Part shown: positions 1 through 9,000 of the stretch, piece after piece
Layout: every line of letters begins with the position of its first letter
Numbering within the stretch: the stretch's first letter is position 1
Source of the DNA: Rhizobium sp. Q54
GTDB taxonomy: Bacteria > Pseudomonadota > Alphaproteobacteria > SMXQ01
Direction: 5' to 3'
NCBI GenBank assembly: GCA_945861615.1
Contig: CAMAVH010000002.1
Location: forward strand, 2,955 to 66,954
DNA: 64,000 nucleotides
Position numbers: made by a program

Positions 1-3000
1 CCGTCGGTCGAAATCGTCGGCAATCCCGACATGCTCTATCTCGCCATCGGCATCCTCGGCGCCACCGTGATGCCCCATAACCTCTATCTGCACACCGCCG
101 TGGTGCAAAGCCGCGCCGTCGGCCCGGCGCCCGAGCAGAAGCGCGAGGCGATCCGCTACGCCTCGCTCGATTCGACCATCGCCTTGACCATTGCCCTGCT
201 GATCAACTCGTCGATCCTGATCCTGGCGGCCGCCACCTTCCACACGGCGGGCCGCACCGAGGTGGCCGAGATTCAGGAAGCCTACAAGCTGCTCGCGCCG
301 ATGCTCGGCGCCGGCTTCGCCGCCACGCTGTTCGCCGTGGCGCTGCTCGCCTCGGGCCTTAATTCGACGGTGACGGCGACCATCGCCGGCCAGGTGGTGA
401 TGCAGGGCTTCTTGCGCTTCAAGCTGCCGATGTGGCTGACCCGGCTGCTGACGCGCCTGGTCGCCATCGTGCCCGCCATCGCGGTCACCTGGCTCTACCA
501 AGAGACCGGCACCGGCGAATTGCTGATCCTGTCGCAGGTCATTCTCAGCCTGCAGCTGCCCTTCGCCGTCATCCCATTGATGCTGTTCGTCAGCGATCGC
601 AAGCTGATGGGCGATTTCCGCCCGCCAGCCTGGATGATCGTCCTCGGCTGGGCCTCGGCCGCCCTGGTCGTGACGATCAACGTCAAACTGCTGACGGACA
701 TGGCGCTGGGACTCTAAGCTGCGCCCCATTAAACTCGCGCCATGAATGCTGCAACCCCACGCCCCGCCGTCTTTCTAGACCGCGACGGCACCATTATCGA
801 AGACGTCGATTACCTTACCCGCGCGGAGCAATTGCGCCTCATCCCCGGCGCGTCGGCGGCAATTCGAGCCTTGAACGAGCAAGGCCTCGCTGTCGTCGTC
901 GTCACCAACCAGTCAGCCGTCGCCAGAGGGATGCTGACAGAAGACGGGCTCGACGCGATCCACCAGCGCCTCACCGACATGCTCGCCGCCGACGGGGCCC
1001 ATCTCGACGCAATCTACTACTGCCCACATCTCCCCGAAGGCGGGCTTGCGCCCTACGACCGCTCCTGCGATTGCCGTAAGCCAGCGCCCGGCATGCTGCT
1101 GCAAGCGACGAAGGAGCACGGCATCGACCTCACCGCTAGCGCCATGATTGGCGACAGTCTGCGCGATCTTGATGCGGGCGCCGCCGCCGGTTGCAAAACA
1201 TTAATCTTGTTGCGGACCGGCCACGGCGCCGCCGAGGAGGCGGCGTCAGCGCTCCGCGCAAGTTTCGTTGCCGAAGATCTCGCCGGCGCTGTCGCCGAAC
1301 TGCTCAGCCGGAGGTAACCCCGCCCGGCGCCACCAACTTGCGGCCCAACAACCAATAAGCGACCGCCCCCCCCAAGCCATGGACTAGCGTAATGGCGAGC
1401 AGCGGCGCAGCGAGCCCGACGTACGGAAAGAGCAGAACGATCAAGGCAAACTTAGCAATAAGCTCCCCGCCAGAAACCCAGATCAGCCCCCGCATCGCAG
1501 CCATCGACTGCGCCACAGTCGCGGGCAGACGCGACAGGCTGATCCAAAAAATCGCGCCGCCAGCGAGAAGATAGAGGTAAATATCGGTTGGTGCTTTGGC
1601 GCTACCGACCCATAGACGCACGACCCACGGGCCCAGCAAGCCATAGCCCACAGCCGCCACGCATGAGCCCACGGCCATCCACAACCACACCTCACGATAA
1701 ATGCGCGCTAGGCGATCGCGCTCGCCGGTGACGTCCATCGCGACGAATTCCGGTTGCAGATGAAGGGGAACACGCGCGAGCAGCTGGATAAGCATTTCCG
1801 CGATTTTCCAGACTAGCGCATATTGCGCCGCCATGATCGGACCGCCCCACAAGCCGATGAGCAGCATGTCGGACTGCAGGCTGATGCCGATTAACGCATA
1901 AGCCAGATATTTACCGCCCTGGCCGGACAGCATCTGCCCGATCGCGCTCCCGATCCCGATGAGGGATATCTTGAGCCGGAAAGAGGGATGCGAACGGCGT
2001 ACCCACCAGACGACGGCGCGCATCGCAAGATCATTGGCTAGAAAGCATACCATTACCCCGACGAGGCCGCCGCCCGACAGCAGCCACGGCACCACGCTAG
2101 CCGTAAAAACGCCGAGACCTACCAACATCGAGATATTGACTGCGAACTGGCGCTTGGCGGCAGCAAGAATCGTCTGCTCTATTTGGATTTCACACAGCAG
2201 TATGAAATGCACTGCTGCCAGTATCATCGCAGTCATAATTTCCTCACGCAAAGCCACAGGGGCATCGCGGAAGAAAACGGAATGCATGGCTTCCAGCAAA
2301 AGCATGCCGCCGGCGCAGAGCAAGCTGCTCCCCAGCAGCATCAGCTTACCGGCGATATAAAAGCGGGAAAATCCGCTAGCATCGCCCGCCGCCATGCTCT
2401 CGCTGAAACGGCGCAGCAGAAACCCGTGCGGCCAGCTGAGAATCGTATAACCAAAAACGACCTGCGCCATGAAGATCGTCAGAACGCCGAAGCGGTAGTC
2501 GCCAAGCACGTGCAGATAAAGTGGGATCAATAGAATCTGGACTAGCGCCTGCGCCACCATCAGCCCATAGCTGGCCAGCACGGCGCCGACGTAGTCGGGA
2601 TTGTTCCGCGCTTTGGCGAAAAGATCAGCAATTTTGTTCAAAGAATCGGCCAGTGGTGCGGCACTTGCGCCTTGCGTGGAAATCGGCTTTACCATACGTT
2701 GCCAGGGCCAATAAACTATAGCGTTTTCTCTATATCGGTATACGGCCCGGACTGAGAAAGCGTCACCATAGCCGTGAGCGCATGTCGGTATAGATGACCA
2801 CACATACCCAGACTTTTTTCGACGAAGTACAAAAGATCGCGGCGACTCTCGATTACGCCACCATCGAAACCTTGGCCAATGAACTCGCCGCATTGCGCGA
2901 CCGCGAGGGGCGGTTATTTATGCTTGGCGTCGGCGGCAGCGCCGCCAATTGCGCCCATGCAGTAAACGATTTCCGCAAGCTTTGCGGCATCGAAACTTAC

Positions 3001-6000: not shown

Positions 6001-9000
6001 ACAACGTCGCGCATCACGCGTCGAACCCGGATTTCGAATTCGCCGAATCCGACATCCGCGACTATCAGCCCGGCGACAAGCTGTTCGCCGACGCCGACTA
6101 CGTCATCCACTTCGCCGGCATCGGCGACATCGTGCCCTCCATCGAAAAGCCGATGGAATACATGTCGACCAACGTGCAAGGCACCGTGCATATGCTCGAA
6201 TGCGCCCGCGCGGCCCATGGCGGGCGCGGCGTAAAGAAGTTCGTCTATGCCGCATCGTCGTCCTGCTACGGCTTGGCCCAGACGCCCACGCGTGAGGATC
6301 ACCCGATCGCCACGCTGTACCCTTACGCGCTCAGCAAGTATCAGGGCGAACAGGCGACGCTGCATTGGGGCAAGCTCTACAAGCTGCCGGTCAACGTCAT
6401 CCGCATCTTCAACGCCTACGGCACGCGCTCGCGCACGTCGGGCGCCTATGGCGCGGTGTTCGGCGTGTTCCTCAAGCAGAAGCTCGCCGGCAAGCCCTTC
6501 ACCGTCGTCGGCGACGGCACGCAGACGCGCGACTTCCTCTACGCCACGGACGTCGCCGAGGCCTTCCGCCTGGCCGCCGAAACCGACAAGACCGGCGAAA
6601 TCTGGAATCTCGGCGCCGGCAATCCTCAGTCCGTGAACAAGCTGGTCGAACTGCTCGGCGGCGAAGTCATCTACATTCCCAAGCGCCCCGGCGAGCCGGA
6701 TTGCACCTGGGCCGACATCGCCAAGATCACGCGCGATCTCGGCTGGACGCAGCAGGTCAGCTTCGAAGAGGGCGTCGGTCGCATCCTCGCGAATATCGAT
6801 TATTGGCGCGAAGCGCCGTTGTGGGAGCCGGATTCGATCGCCAAAGCGACCGCCGGCTGGTTCAAGGCGCTATCGTAACGGGGTTGCGGGGATGATGGAC
6901 GAGGCCAGCAAGAAGATCGTCAACCATAAGATCGTCACGGTCGAAAAGTTGCGCGAGATTATCGGCGGCTTGCCGCGCAAGAAGTCCGTCATCATGTGCC
7001 ACGGAACGTTCGACATCGTCCATCCGGGCCACGTGCGCCATCTGCTCTACGCCAAGAGCAAGGCCGACCTCCTGATCGCCAGCCTGACCTGCGACGACCA
7101 TATCAAAAAGGCGAACTTCCGGCCCTTCGTGCCGGAAGACCTGCGCGCGATCAACCTCGCGGCGCTGGAAATCGTCGACTATGTGATCGTCGATCGCGAG
7201 CCGACGCCGCTGAAGAACATCACCATGCTGCAGCCCGACTACTTCGCCAAGGGCTACGAATACGGTTCGACCGGCCTTCCGCCCAAAACCCAGGAAGAGA
7301 AGAACGCCGTCGAGGCTTACGGCGGGCAGATCATCTTCACGCCGGGCGACATCGTCTATTCCTCGTCGCATATCATCGAAAGCTTCCCGCCGAACCTTTC
7401 GACCGAGAAGCTCATCATGCTACTCGACGCCGAGGGCATTTCCTTCAAAGACCTGCATCACGCCGTCGACGCCATGAAGGGCGTCAAAGTGCATGTCGTC
7501 GGCGACACCATCATCGACAGCTACACGCACACCACGCTGATCGGCGGCATGACCAAGACGCCGACCATGAGCGTGCGCTTCGAGGAGAAACAGGACTTCG
7601 TCGGCGGCGCCGGCATCGTCGCCAAACACATCAATGCGGCCGGCGCGGACGTCACTTTTTCAACGGTGCTTGGCGTCGACGCGCTCGGCGATTTCGCGCT
7701 CGACGACCTCACCAAGGCCGGCGTGAAATGCCTGCCGATCAAGGACAAGACGCGCCCGACGATCAACAAGAACGCCATCATCGCAGGCACCTATCATCTC
7801 CTGAAGATCGACACGCTCGACAACCGCTCGATCTCGGAAGAGATCGTCAGGAAGCTGTCGGACCAGATTGTCGAGGCCAAGCCGGAGATCGTCGTGTTCA
7901 GCGATTTCCGCCATGGCATGTTCAACCGCGACACCATTGGCCCCCTCACCGCAGCGATCCCCGAAGGGATCATGAAGATCGCCGACAGCCAGGTGGCCAG
8001 CCGCTGGGGCAACATTCTCGAATTCCAGGGCTTCGACCTGATCACGCCGAACGAACGCGAGGCGCGCTTCGCCCTCGGCGACCAGGATTCGGTCGTCCGT
8101 CCGCTCGGCCTCGAGCTTTATCGCCGCGCCAACTGCAAGCTGCTGATCCTCAAGATGGGCGAGCGCGGCCTGCTGACCTATCGCGGCATGCCGAAAGCCG
8201 AAGAAGATGTGCGTGCTTTCTTCGCCGTCGACACCTTCTGCCAGAACGTGGTGGACGCGGTCGGCGCCGGCGATGCGCTGCTCGCCTACGCATCTCTCGC
8301 CTTGAAGGTTACTGGCAAGGCGGTCATTGCCTCCGTTCTCGGATCGGTGGCCGCGGCGCTGGCCTGCGAGCAGGAAGGCAACGTTCCGATCGGGCCCGAC
8401 GACGTCCATGCCCGCCTCAACTTGATTGAAAGCCACGTCAATTATGGTTGAGCCGCTTCGCTCCGCCACAGGTGCCGCACGATGCGGGTGATCGTCGCCG
8501 GCATGGGCGTGCAGGGCCACAAGCGCCTGCGCATCGCCGGGGCGGACGCCGTGGCCACGGTCGATCCGGTCGCCGATGGCGTGAAATACCGCACCGTCGA
8601 AGAGGTGCCCCTCGACAGTTATGATGCGGCGCTACTCTGCGTGCCCGATACGCCGAAGGTCGCATTGCTCCGCCATCTGCTCGGCAACGGCAAGCACGCC
8701 CTGGTCGAAAAGCCGCTGTTCGCCGCCGACAATGCCGAGTTGGACGGGCTGGAGAAACTGGCGCGCGCCAACAACGCGGTCTGCTACACCGCCTACAACC
8801 ATCGCTTCGAGCCGCATTACGCCGCCATGGCCGAACTGATCCGCTCGGGCAACATGGGCGAGATTTATCGCTGCCGTATGTTCTATGGCAACGGCACGGC
8901 GCGCCTGGTGCGCGATTCGGCCTGGCGCGACGAAGGCGCCGGCGTGCTGCCCGACCTCGGCTCACACCTTCTGGACACCTGCCGGTTTTGGTTCGGCAAT

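Follow-up and report, generated by a model that had tools for sequence, protein, structure and literature searches.

The window, a stretch of 64,000 nucleotides from Rhizobium sp. Q54, carries one coupled 13-gene operon (2794-14898), the cassette analysed here (Table 1). The genes are arranged in the order SIS isomerase, HAD phosphatase (HAD2), short transaldolase (TAL), two GalE-like SDRs, NT-kinase fusion, Gfo/Idh/MocA oxidoreductase and UGD-like protein without catalytic Cys, followed by an SDR, a methyltransferase, a split transketolase-like enzyme and a last SDR. An ORF and domain check of the window recovered all five open reading frames of a preliminary description at the limits of Table 1, with the domains HAD-IIIA (HAD1 and HAD2), SIS_2 (SIS), TAL_FSA (TAL) and CTP_transf_like plus PfkB (NT-kinase). 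The translational coupling of TAL to the second phosphatase proposed there was also found, the HAD2 stop and TAL start overlapping in an ATGA at 3955-3958. The core genes of the module then placed at 742-8451 were retained as the front of the operon while its limits were not, since the coupled operon reaches 14898 and 742-1317 lies outside it.

Table 1. Features of the cassette, its operon and the adjoining genes
Feature	Coordinates	Strand	Matches and remarks
HAD1, canonical GmhB	742..1317	+	NF006506 193.7 vs cutoff 178; outside cassette
Polytopic flippase-like membrane protein	1304..2695	-	weak WZX_like, 19 bits; divergent from operon
SIS isomerase, distinct GmhA-related subfamily	2794..3381	+	PF13580; putative ketose-phosphate to aldose-phosphate isomerase
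HAD2, HAD-IIIA phosphatase, GmhB-like	3416..3958	+	putative terminal-phosphate removal from aldose 1,omega-bisphosphate
TAL, short transaldolase, TIGR02134 cassette clade	3955..4689	+	putative ketose phosphate maker
SDR1, GalE-like NAD-dependent epimerase	4879..5874	+	PF01370
SDR2, GalE/LegB-like epimerase or oxidoreductase	5871..6878	+	PF01370, PF16363
NT-kinase, cytidylyltransferase-like domain and PfkB sugar-phosphate kinase	6892..8451	+	PF01467, PF00294
Gfo/Idh/MocA oxidoreductase	8482..9408	+	PF22725, PF01408; ATGA coupling to UGD-like gene
UGD-family NDP-sugar dehydrogenase-like protein without catalytic Cys	9405..10685	+	TIGR03026 204.6, cutoff 189.8
SDR3, NAD-dependent epimerase/reductase	10717..11601	+	PF01370; syntenic in 35 loci
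Class I SAM-dependent methyltransferase	11601..12257	+	PF13649, PF08241; syntenic in 29 loci
Split transketolase-like, N-terminal thiamine-diphosphate-binding subunit	12270..13094	+	PF00456 121.7; NF004559 209 bits
Split transketolase-like, C-terminal pyrimidine-binding subunit, non-canonical substrate site	13091..14002	+	best solved match 6yaj
SDR4, NAD-dependent epimerase/reductase, last operon gene	14029..14898	+	PF01370

Two GmhB-like phosphatases had been assigned to the module, of which HAD2 alone belongs to it; HAD1 is absent from most related loci and, among those with the mntH flank, was seen only in L003 and L081. HAD1 lies 25 nt downstream of mntH, in a separate transcription unit, and converges on the flippase-like gene. 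The flippase-like protein, for which no Pfam match was found, is a 463-aa gene call in L081 and has 45-50% identity to its counterparts in L001-L003.

The heptose-pathway homologs of the window cassette were all far under the equivalog cutoffs. SIS gave 54 bits with the gmhA model TIGR00441 (cutoff 209) and is about 30% identical to GmhA of B. pseudomallei, while its orthologs in other cassettes showed 57-82% identity. The His/Glu/Gln/His metal and catalytic positions of GmhA are His/Asp/Glu/His in SIS, which also carries two insertions, of 6 aa and 4 aa, relative to the B. pseudomallei enzyme. HAD2 reached 133.7 with the GmhB equivalog NF006506 (cutoff 178), and the NT-kinase reached 90 of 181.5 with rfaE_dom_II and 129 of 345 with rfaE_dom_I, the two HldE domains. 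The kinase-nucleotidyltransferase fusion noticed earlier is confirmed in the reverse order, with the nucleotidyltransferase (residues 36-163) N-terminal and the PfkB kinase (residues 200-496) C-terminal, opposite to HldE; the nearest solved structures are 5x9q, a putative cytidylyltransferase, and HldA (4e84).

TAL had been described as Fsa/TalC-type; this assignment was replaced, because it passes the cutoff of TIGR02134 'transald_staph' (342 bits, cutoff 282) and fails that of TIGR00875 fsa_talC_mipB (just 79 bits, cutoff 246). The catalytic set Asp17, Glu70 and Lys96 is kept, and the discriminating position is Phe where FSA has Tyr. The cassette transaldolases formed a clade of their own, with 62-98% identity among themselves versus 49-54% to Firmicute and spirochaete members, and were separated from the sampled TIGR02134 members of S. 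aureus, PTS-linked lactobacillus, Treponema and a Streptomyces plasmid. The catalytic and phosphate-binding motifs, compared by eye with those of the S. aureus enzyme, are nearly alike (ASPR versus ASCR) and gave no sign of an altered acceptor in TAL.

SDR1 was taken to start from the ATG of MKNVLITGG, while the mechanical ORF opens at 4771; the identical contig L081 has a 331-aa gene call that backs this choice. SDR1 contains the motifs SSSSVYG and YNKFK without the Asp/Glu of 4,6-dehydratases. SDR2, coupled to SDR1 by ATGA, contains SSSCYG and YALSK and gave about 150 bits with each of the galE, LegB and RmlB models, none of which reaches its cutoff. In the UGD-like protein SGGNLERD is aligned to GGSCFPKD of 4a7p and GTGYVG is replaced by GMTHLG. 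The Cys-to-Asn change is kept in 37 of 38 orthologs, and a role as an ordinary uronic-acid-forming dehydrogenase is ruled out for a protein without the catalytic Cys. It is paired with the Gfo/Idh/MocA oxidoreductase in 38 of the 80 loci.

The C-terminal transketolase-like subunit matched 6yaj, the split transketolase of C. hydrogenoformans, with 181 bits, and the 6yaj motif HAG...GEDGASHQ is replaced by GMGSGVIYSTLGGTHHTQ, a substitution conserved in 12 of 13 orthologs. The enzyme is without the His/Asp substrate motif of the biochemically validated split transketolase, and in L172 and L175 a PDH-E1 alpha/beta-like pair stands in its place. The loss of the motif together with this exchange points to a role in sugar tailoring and not in the pentose phosphate pathway.

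Hundreds of bacterial species carry the cassette, which keeps its synteny over several phyla at 55-85% identity. Among 75 genome loci found via the transaldolase with room upstream, a cassette-type SIS lay no more than 3 kb from it in 66, and HAD2 was conserved beside both genes in 63. The reverse search from SIS, on metagenome contigs, found a transaldolase in 43 of 53 informative loci and none nearby in the other 10 (about 19%). The SIS-HAD-TAL arrangement is far from chance: the triad is conserved in Alpha-, Beta- and Gammaproteobacteria, Acidobacteria, Nitrospirae, Omnitrophota and Desulfovibrionaceae, and it stays where the kinase and nucleotidyltransferase are GHMP and NTP-transferase enzymes or are absent from the fetched locus (L002, L003). 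Rhizobium jaguaris and Lawsonia have a sister cassette, in which the same triad stands with a GHMP kinase, an NTP-transferase, a UGD-like protein that is also Cys-less (here Cys-to-Thr) and Gfo/MocA, so that the last two accompany the triad in both cassette types, the Lawsonia version included. The scores of the sister cassette are 168 of 600 for HddA, 92 of 300 for HddC and 60 of 209 for GmhA. Carriers include Rhizobium jaguaris CCGE525, Skermanella aerolata KACC 11604, Polynucleobacter sp. IMCC 30228 and Lawsonia intracellularis. Two Patescibacteria loci, L025 and L064, have a transaldolase from the cassette clade that is coupled to HldA/HldC-like genes and adjoins a SIS gene with 156-180 bits on the GmhA model; judged by these matches, both look like ordinary ADP-heptose synthesis.

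Concerning substrates, carbon number, nucleotide and final product we infer a route, given about an even chance (roughly 0.5), in which the operon would provide the O-antigen locus around it, of the ABC-transporter type, with an NDP-activated higher-carbon sugar by an NDP-octose-type pathway. TAL would transfer three carbons from fructose-6-P or sedoheptulose-7-P to an aldose phosphate, most likely ribose-5-P, yielding octulose-8-P, which central metabolism does not provide. The divergent GmhA-like SIS would convert it to the aldose-8-P, the PfkB domain would place a phosphate onto C1, HAD2 would take the terminal phosphate off, and the cytidylyltransferase-like domain would form an NDP-sugar whose linkage is probably ADP-beta, as it is in the HldE route. 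Predicted tailoring comprises GalE-like epimerisation by SDR1 and SDR2, side-chain oxidation and dehydration by Gfo/MocA with the Cys-less UGD-like protein, transfer of two carbons by the thiamine enzyme of transketolase type, ketoreduction by SDR3 and SDR4, and methylation. The product is probably an undescribed sugar of 8 carbons or larger.

The model for this route is the lincosamide pathway, in which the transaldolase LmbR uses ribose-5-P and fructose-6-P or sedoheptulose-7-P, followed by the C8 isomerase LmbN, kinase LmbP, phosphatase LmbK, guanylyltransferase LmbO, epimerase LmbM, dehydrogenase LmbL and oxidoreductase LmbZ (PMC4351081, PMC7014725, PMC12945683). Likened by described functions to the GDP-octose pathway of Streptomyces lincolnensis and S. 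caelestis (LmbR, LmbN, LmbP, LmbK and LmbO, then LmbM, LmbL, LmbZ and LmbS), the window has in common a transaldolase inside a sugar-nucleotide operon, a GmhA-like isomerase, an anomeric kinase, a GmhB-like phosphatase, a nucleotidyltransferase, a GalE-like epimerase, and a 'dehydrogenase' and 'NAD(P) oxidoreductase' (functions from PMC4351081, PMC12945683). The window differs in the fusion of a PfkB kinase with a cytidylyltransferase-like domain, in having no aminotransferase, in the added methyltransferase, thiamine-dependent enzyme and further SDRs, and in that its genes serve a Gram-negative polysaccharide locus where the Lmb genes form an antibiotic cluster. The Lmb kinase LmbP and nucleotidyltransferase LmbO are GHMP and NTP-transferase enzymes; TAL, SIS, the UGD-like protein and Gfo/MocA would be putative counterparts of LmbR, LmbN, LmbL and LmbZ. 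The exact Lmb set that had been proposed for the window is not there, since its own kinase and nucleotidyltransferase are of HldE-type families. With its GHMP kinase and NTP-transferase the sister cassette also shares this list, a composition which we take to be the lincosamide octose set LmbR/N/K/P/O/M/L/Z without the aminotransferase. The conserved triad, the TAL clade, the Gfo/Cys-less UGD-like pair and the make-up of the sister cassette suggest a stronger octose analogy than the preliminary description, made from the sequence alone, could show.

Counted against the octose reading were the kinase and nucleotidyltransferase families, which are those of the ADP-heptose route, the heptose-like Patescibacteria loci, the SIS loci without transaldolase and the S. 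aureus-like TAL motifs; nor do we know of an 8-carbon aldose in a bacterial polysaccharide. The ADP-L-glycero-beta-D-manno-heptose pathway (GmhA, HldE or HldA+HldC, GmhB, HldD) matches the window in its SIS, kinase, nucleotidyltransferase and phosphatase families, with GmhA, HldA and 5x9q as nearest solved structures; the window differs in its sub-cutoff scores, reversed domain order, catalytic Glu-to-Asp change, missing HldD equivalog and added transaldolase. For the GDP-D-glycero-alpha-D-manno-heptose pathway (GmhA, HddA, GmhB, HddC) of Campylobacter and Aneurinibacillus, HddA and HddC are the best or near-best named matches of the sister cassette, which differs in those low scores and in adding the transaldolase, Cys-less UGD-like protein and Gfo/MocA.

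Sedoheptulose-7-P supply and a C8 sugar had been the two alternatives offered; the evidence sharpened both without choosing, and the proposal is partly supported overall. In the first, with perhaps one chance in three, TAL would make sedoheptulose-7-P from fructose-6-P and erythrose-4-P, SIS would be a divergent GmhA, and the product an ADP-linked heptose (GDP-linked in the sister cassette) that is then tailored; such private supply would make a horizontally mobile NDP-heptose cassette independent of host pentose-phosphate flux. GmhA, GmhB, HldA and HldC are indeed the nearest characterised relatives of SIS, HAD2 and the NT-kinase domains, the annotation of TIGR02134 is that of a true transaldolase family, the TAL motifs compared are close to those of S. 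aureus, and the Patescibacteria couple the same clade to more canonical genes. Some SIS-HAD2 loci work without an adjoining transaldolase, and the closest relatives, L002 and L003, may use a housekeeping HldE, in which case their intermediate would be heptose-like. However, sedoheptulose-7-P is a normal central metabolite, and we know of no transaldolase in the characterised heptose loci (E. coli, Campylobacter, Burkholderia, Yersinia) or in natural-product clusters consuming it. Retention of the transaldolase is also stricter than that of the kinase and nucleotidyltransferase, indispensable as these two are, the divergence of SIS from GmhA argues against this supply, and the Cys-less UGD-like and Gfo/MocA pair is without a role in any known heptose pathway.

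It is improbable that TAL makes a ketose phosphate of another length (e.g. C9 from hexose-6-P) or uses an unusual acceptor, in which case the final sugar would be neither heptose nor octose. Transaldolases take several aldose phosphates, as is established enzymology, SIS, kinase and phosphatase all diverge from the heptose enzymes, and the thiamine enzyme adds carbon-carbon chemistry; yet such a length is without precedent and the sequences give no chain-length indication. [quoted passage not shown] The coupling to HAD2, the SIS/HAD synteny over phyla, the separate clade, the missing substrate motif and the E1-like replacement in orthologous cassettes all speak against it, and to our knowledge the proteobacterial host lineages normally carry a TalB-type enzyme.

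The tailoring part of the octose-type route resembles thiamine-dependent two-carbon branching of NDP-keto-sugars, namely YerE in yersiniose and the PDH-E1-like pairs for paulomycin/avilamycin-type branched octoses, in that an alpha/beta thiamine enzyme lies in a sugar-nucleotide operon. For Gram-negative polysaccharides, octoses with a hydroxyethyl branch at C-4 are described in the paulomycin paper (PMC4753412). In L175 the enzyme is a PDH-E1-like pair with a ketoreductase after it, whereas the window enzyme is split transketolase-like and just 19-24% identical to the pair.

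Annotation of the window indicated that the five genes assigned in a preliminary description to a heptose-type sugar-nucleotide module are all present, with coordinates and domain families as claimed. The stop codon of the second phosphatase gene (HAD2) overlaps the start codon of the transaldolase gene (TAL) as ATGA at 3955-3958, which confirmed the proposed coupling. The module had been taken to end at 8451, and this is incorrect: a single plus-strand operon (the cassette) spans 2794-14898 and comprises, in order, a SIS-domain gene (SIS), HAD2, TAL, two SDR genes (SDR1 and SDR2), a nucleotidyltransferase-kinase fusion (NT-kinase), a Gfo/Idh/MocA gene (GFO), a UDP-glucose-dehydrogenase-family gene (UGD-like), SDR3, a small class I methyltransferase gene (MT), a split transketolase-like pair (TKN and TKC) and a last SDR gene. 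Overlaps were also found at SDR1/SDR2 and GFO/UGD (ATGA), SDR3/MT (TGATG) and TKN/TKC (GTGA). SDR1 and SDR2 carry GalE-like SSSxYG and YxxxK motifs and lack the Asp/Glu of 4,6-dehydratases. No canonical gmhA, hldE, hldD or second transaldolase gene was found in the 64-kb window.

Features of the window, with coordinates, strand and family assignment
Feature	Coordinates	Strand	Family or remark
HAD1	742-1317		HAD-IIIA
Wzx-like polytopic protein	1304-2695	-	no Pfam match; 19 bits on WZX_like
SIS	2794-3381	+	SIS_2
HAD2	3416-3958	+	HAD-IIIA
TAL	3955-4689	+	TAL_FSA
NT-kinase fusion	6892-8451	+	CTP_transf_like + PfkB
GFO	8482-9408	+	Gfo/Idh/MocA
UGD-like	9405-10685	+	UDP-glucose dehydrogenase family
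TKN/TKC	12270-13094, 13091-14002	+	split transketolase-like subunits
ABC-2 transporter pair	15386-16982	-	Wzm/Wzt type
Carbamoyltransferase	18917-20752
Glf (UDP-galactopyranose mutase)	20830-21981
TylF-family O-methyltransferases (three)	24208-25371, 30154-31347, 45115-45852		two with N-terminal extensions of about 180-200 aa
Fasciclin-domain protein	32498-33955
Acyltransferase_3	43572-44750
Pfam-less ORFs (seven)	16987-18150, 22000-24171, 25289-26665, 28951-30150, 34862-36397, 37401-38576, 38650-41286		387-878 aa
Recombinase fusion	47626-49056		Rad52/22-family domain + DUF968
BrkB-like fusion	50692-52140	-	BrkB-like membrane domain + C-terminal Rrf2-type regulator domain

Subfamily models did not bear out the assignment of TAL to the Fsa/TalC type, since TIGR00875 gave 78.9 bits (cutoff 245.95) while TIGR02134 'transald_staph' gave 342.4 bits (cutoff 281.95). 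Alignment revealed that Asp17, Glu70, Lys96 (the Schiff-base residue) and a Phe of TAL correspond to Asp6, Glu60, Lys86 and Phe132 of the T. acidophilum enzyme, and alignment with the Thermoplasma and Thermotoga enzymes placed Phe at the FSA-defining position, where Tyr marks fructose-6-P aldolases. The sub-cutoff TIGR00875 score and this Phe rule out an Fsa-type aldolase. The catalytic and phosphate-binding motifs compared by eye are nearly identical to those of the S. aureus enzyme. In a neighbour-joining tree the cassette-linked transaldolases, including those of Lawsonia and Patescibacteria, formed one clade, and the enzymes of S. aureus, Treponema, two lactobacilli (adjoining LacI/PTS genes) and a Streptomyces plasmid fell outside it; TAL therefore does not group with housekeeping TalC/MipB. 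The Streptomyces enzyme, the one plasmid relative from that genus (51% identity), is flanked by genes for an arabinonolactone oxidase, a phosphatase and an MFS transporter and does not lie in a lincosamide-like cluster.

Compared with the enzymes of the ADP/GDP-heptose module, SIS, HAD2 and the NT-kinase all fell short of equivalog level. SIS scored 54.3 bits on TIGR00441 (cutoff 209.45) and 41-46 bits on the other GmhA models (cutoffs 265-320); in place of the His, Glu, Gln and His found at the metal-binding and catalytic positions of B. pseudomallei GmhA it has His, Asp, Glu and His, with two insertions nearby, a residue set that would be chemically compatible with isomerase activity. The kinase and nucleotidyltransferase described as fused were both identified, but in the order opposite to that of HldE, with the nucleotidyltransferase domain (PF01467, 36-163) preceding the PfkB domain (PF00294, 200-496); the protein scored 154.5 on NF008454 (cutoff 521) and each half was far under the HldE domain cutoffs. 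Both GmhB-like phosphatases belong to HAD-IIIA, but conservation alongside SIS and TAL is seen for HAD2 only. With a GmhB equivalog cutoff of 178, HAD1 passes at 193.7 and HAD2 fails at 133.7. The canonical GmhB, HAD1, lies outside the operon, 25 nt downstream of mntH (Nramp/MntH) and converging on a flippase-like gene; it is absent from most related loci and, among relatives with the mntH flank, was found only in loci L003 and L081.

A search of one genome per species recovered at least 489 relatives of TAL, a figure that counts TAL relatives and not confirmed cassettes. The best 80 of them are 62-98% identical and occur in Alpha-, Beta-, Gamma- and Deltaproteobacteria, Acidobacteria, Nitrospirae, Latescibacteria, Omnitrophota, Bacteroidia, Chloroflexales, Verrucomicrobiota and Patescibacteria; the window matches a Rhodospirillaceae metagenome-assembled genome (98% at TAL). 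Mapping of the window proteins on these 80 loci revealed that the order SIS-HAD2-TAL-SDR1-SDR2-NTK-GFO-UGD-SDR3-MT-(SDR)-TKN-TKC recurs at 55-85% identity. Within this set, which was found through TAL, SIS lies no more than 3 kb from the transaldolase in 66 of the 75 loci with upstream room and a HAD gene lies within the same distance in 63 of the 75; the NT-kinase was found in 41 loci and the GFO and UGD pair in 38. When the SIS protein was instead searched against metagenome contigs, a transaldolase was present in 43 of 53 informative loci; the inspected SIS loci without one (L105 and L124) have no kinase nearby either. Contigs of Bradyrhizobium, Pseudolabrys and Xanthobacteraceae also carry cassette fragments. 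L002 (12981-18350) and L003, the loci most closely related to the window, keep SIS-HAD2-TAL-SDR1-SDR2-GFO-UGD-SDR3 and lack the NT-kinase gene in the fetched locus; L002 carries genes for a NUDIX protein, an RmlC-like 3,5-epimerase and a GT2 between SDR3 and the methyltransferase.

The UGD-like protein passes the subfamily model TIGR03026 (204.6 vs 189.8). Its SGGNLERD segment corresponds in alignment to GGSCFPKD in the UDP-glucose dehydrogenase of Sphingomonas, the catalytic Cys being replaced by Asn as in 37 of 38 orthologs, and its dinucleotide motif reads GMTHLG instead of GxGYVG. Because the catalytic Cys is missing, the protein is not a normal dehydrogenase of this family and the formation of a uronic acid by it is ruled out. 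The corresponding proteins of a sister cassette (L085; 32% identity to the window protein over the full length) and of a Lawsonia plasmid show GLWHLG and GGTLARD, with Thr for Cys. The window carries this Cys-less protein coupled to the Gfo/Idh/MocA gene.

The transketolase-like subunits scored 209 and 175 bits on NF004559 (cutoff 488), short of equivalog level. Among solved structures, the split transketolase of Carboxydothermus, an enzyme with biochemical characterisation, matches best (181 bits). The canonical substrate-binding motif H..G...GEDG.(S/T)HQ (HAG...GEDGASHQ in Carboxydothermus) is absent and is replaced by GMGSGVIYSTLGGTHHTQ, which is kept in 12 of 13 orthologs. Loci L172 (19766-20744) and L175 (17508-20443), otherwise orthologous cassettes, have at this position a PDH-E1 alpha/beta-like pair with 19-24% identity to the window enzyme. 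In L175 an adh_short ketoreductase comes after the pair and shares 36% identity with the reductase of the sister cassette, and in both loci a NUDIX gene adjoins the pair. The occupation of one position by two unrelated thiamine enzymes argues for a putative two-carbon transfer onto the sugar and against a pentose-phosphate role. The transketolase-like enzyme and TAL as a pair supplying sedoheptulose-7-P (S7P) were rejected because of the altered substrate motif and the substitution by E1-like enzymes. A two-carbon transfer of this kind would resemble what E1-like or YerE-type enzymes do in pathways to branched octoses.

The sister cassette was found on plasmid pRCCGE525c of Rhizobium jaguaris CCGE525 and in numerous uncultured members of the Beta- and Gammaproteobacteria and the Acidobacteria. 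Its genes are arranged as GT2, SDR, UGD-like, adh_short, Gfo/Idh/MocA, GHMP kinase, NTP_transferase, SIS, HAD and TAL, with the triad at the end of the array, and SIS and TAL are 65% and 66% identical to those of the window. Scores against the cutoffs for HddA (168/600), HddC (92/300), GmhA (60/209) and GmhB (119/178) show that the resemblance of its enzymes to heptose enzymes is again only a distant one. The plasmid of Lawsonia intracellularis (L167, 3733-10720) carries SIS, HAD-IIIA, transaldolase, membrane protein, Cys-less nucleotide-sugar dehydrogenase, SDR, Gfo/Idh/MocA and GHMP kinase genes; this bacterium is an obligate intracellular pathogen of pigs, and RefSeq labels the transaldolase a pentose-phosphate-shunt gene. 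A search of plasmids with the NT-kinase recovered only paralogs of 30% identity. Such a paralog characterizes a distant variant on a plasmid of Azospirillum oryzae KACC 14407 (L178, 5662-19227) and on pDCAR1 of Solidesulfovibrio carbinolicus (L179), together with a different SIS subfamily, E1-like or transketolase enzymes and radical SAM enzymes, and in the Azospirillum locus also two DegT aminotransferases and a NUDIX protein. Neither locus contains a transaldolase or a HAD phosphatase. Carbamoyltransferase, GDSL and TPR neighbours are common to the Azospirillum locus and the window.

In the lincosamide octose pathway LmbR joins ribose-5-P to a C3 unit taken from fructose-6-P or S7P, and LmbN (C8 isomerase), LmbP (kinase), LmbK (phosphatase), LmbO (guanylyltransferase), LmbM (epimerase), LmbL (described as a dehydrogenase) and LmbZ (described as an NAD(P) oxidoreductase) act in the same pathway (PMC7014725, PMC4351081, PMC12945683). 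The cassette shares with this pathway a transaldolase encoded inside a sugar-nucleotide operon, which most related loci keep. LmbP belongs to the GHMP kinases and LmbO to the NTP_transferases; LmbL is of the UGD family and LmbZ of the Gfo/Idh/MocA family, and these last two jointly carry out a 6,8-dehydration, a reaction requiring an exocyclic chain of three carbons. Unlike LmbP and LmbO, the window activation enzyme is a fusion of PfkB and cytidylyltransferase-like domains; the combination of GHMP kinase and NTP_transferase was met only in the sister cassette. If these Lmb families are right, the sister cassette would contain eight of the nine sugar genes of the lmb set, the aminotransferase being replaced by a reductase, and the window cassette would share with that set the diagnostic TAL-SIS-HAD triad as well as the pairing of a Cys-less UGD-like protein with a Gfo protein.

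By analogy with the lmb set, we favour an NDP-octose-type pathway, with predicted substrates and a probability of roughly one half, because TAL persists even in L002 and L003, where kinase and nucleotidyltransferase are lacking in the fetched locus, and because a mobile cassette has no obvious need of a transaldolase for obtaining S7P. The same two observations weigh against the main alternative, in which TAL is a dedicated source of S7P for a heptose pathway. That alternative draws on the Patescibacteria, where a transaldolase of the cassette clade lies between, and overlaps, genes for an HldA-like kinase and an HldC-like adenylyltransferase (L025, 9033-11732) or follows them in the order adenylyltransferase, kinase, transaldolase (L064, 8511-12105); in both loci the opposite strand carries a SIS gene closer to GmhA (156-180 bits on the GmhA model), and the arrangement looks like ordinary ADP-heptose synthesis that brings its own source of S7P. 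The activation enzymes of the window are likewise of ADP-heptose type, TAL resembles the S. aureus enzyme in its motifs, about a fifth of the SIS-ortholog loci have no adjacent transaldolase, and the variant on the Azospirillum and Solidesulfovibrio plasmids indicates that the wider pathway family does not always need one. Together these points keep dedicated S7P supply a tentative second reading, about a third of the weight, while an incidental housekeeping role of the transaldolase is effectively excluded.

Should the octose reading hold, chain extension primed by a transaldolase would reach beyond one Streptomyces antibiotic pathway and be a widespread means of making higher-carbon sugars for cell-surface polysaccharides, with R. 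jaguaris and L. intracellularis among the carriers of TAL relatives; the heptose reading would more modestly make this a self-sufficient heptose cassette with its own precursor supply. A search of the full-text literature yielded no account of a polysaccharide cassette of heptose or octose type that includes a transaldolase. The Cys-less UGD-like enzyme, the transketolase-like enzyme with its altered site and the reversed HldE-like fusion are testable candidates for undescribed sugar chemistry.

More speculatively, and with a distinctly low probability, the cassette might be the missing route to a class of C10-C12 O-antigen sugars, higher-carbon compounds with a branched or carbocyclic structure, in Alphaproteobacteria and relatives. 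The Cys-less UGD-like/Gfo pair would deoxygenate the side chain of an NDP-octose built with the transaldolase, and the transketolase-like (or E1-like) thiamine enzyme would then extend or branch the sugar by two carbons. Candidate products include bradyrhizose, which according to PMC4743980 still lacked known genes in 2016, and a C4-branched sugar from Rhodopseudomonas palustris that PMC9912281 cites. Branched O-antigen sugars with a higher carbon number have also been described in R. palustris, Erwinia and Burkholderia (PMC9912281). Comparison of the translated gdh primers of strain ORS285 (PMC4743980) with the window and all fetched loci gave one uninformative six-residue match, in L043 and outside the cassette. 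The finding provides a genetic entry point to the biosynthesis of higher-carbon O-antigen sugars, so far unexplained, and a link between cassette and sugar is testable because cultured carriers exist.

The 45 kb around the operon form a polysaccharide locus with ABC-2 transporter, carbamoyltransferase, UDP-galactopyranose mutase and acyltransferase_3 genes, three TylF-type methyltransferase genes and genes for GDSL proteins and several large family-less proteins. The TylF trio, the carbamoyltransferase, Glf, the GDSL proteins, the acyltransferase and the fasciclin-domain protein point to a heavily decorated polymer, and since a Wzx-like protein and a Wzm/Wzt-type pair occur in one locus, two export routes would appear to be encoded. 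Seven ORFs of the locus had no Pfam match, and the three of these that were searched against NCBIfam had none in that collection; the products could be glycosyltransferases or polymerases not yet described. Just past the end of the locus, a phage-like gene encoding a Rad52/22-family recombinase domain fused to DUF968 lies in a stretch of lower GC (0.56 at 44-48 kb), and a minus-strand gene downstream fuses a BrkB-like membrane domain to an Rrf2-type transcriptional regulator domain.
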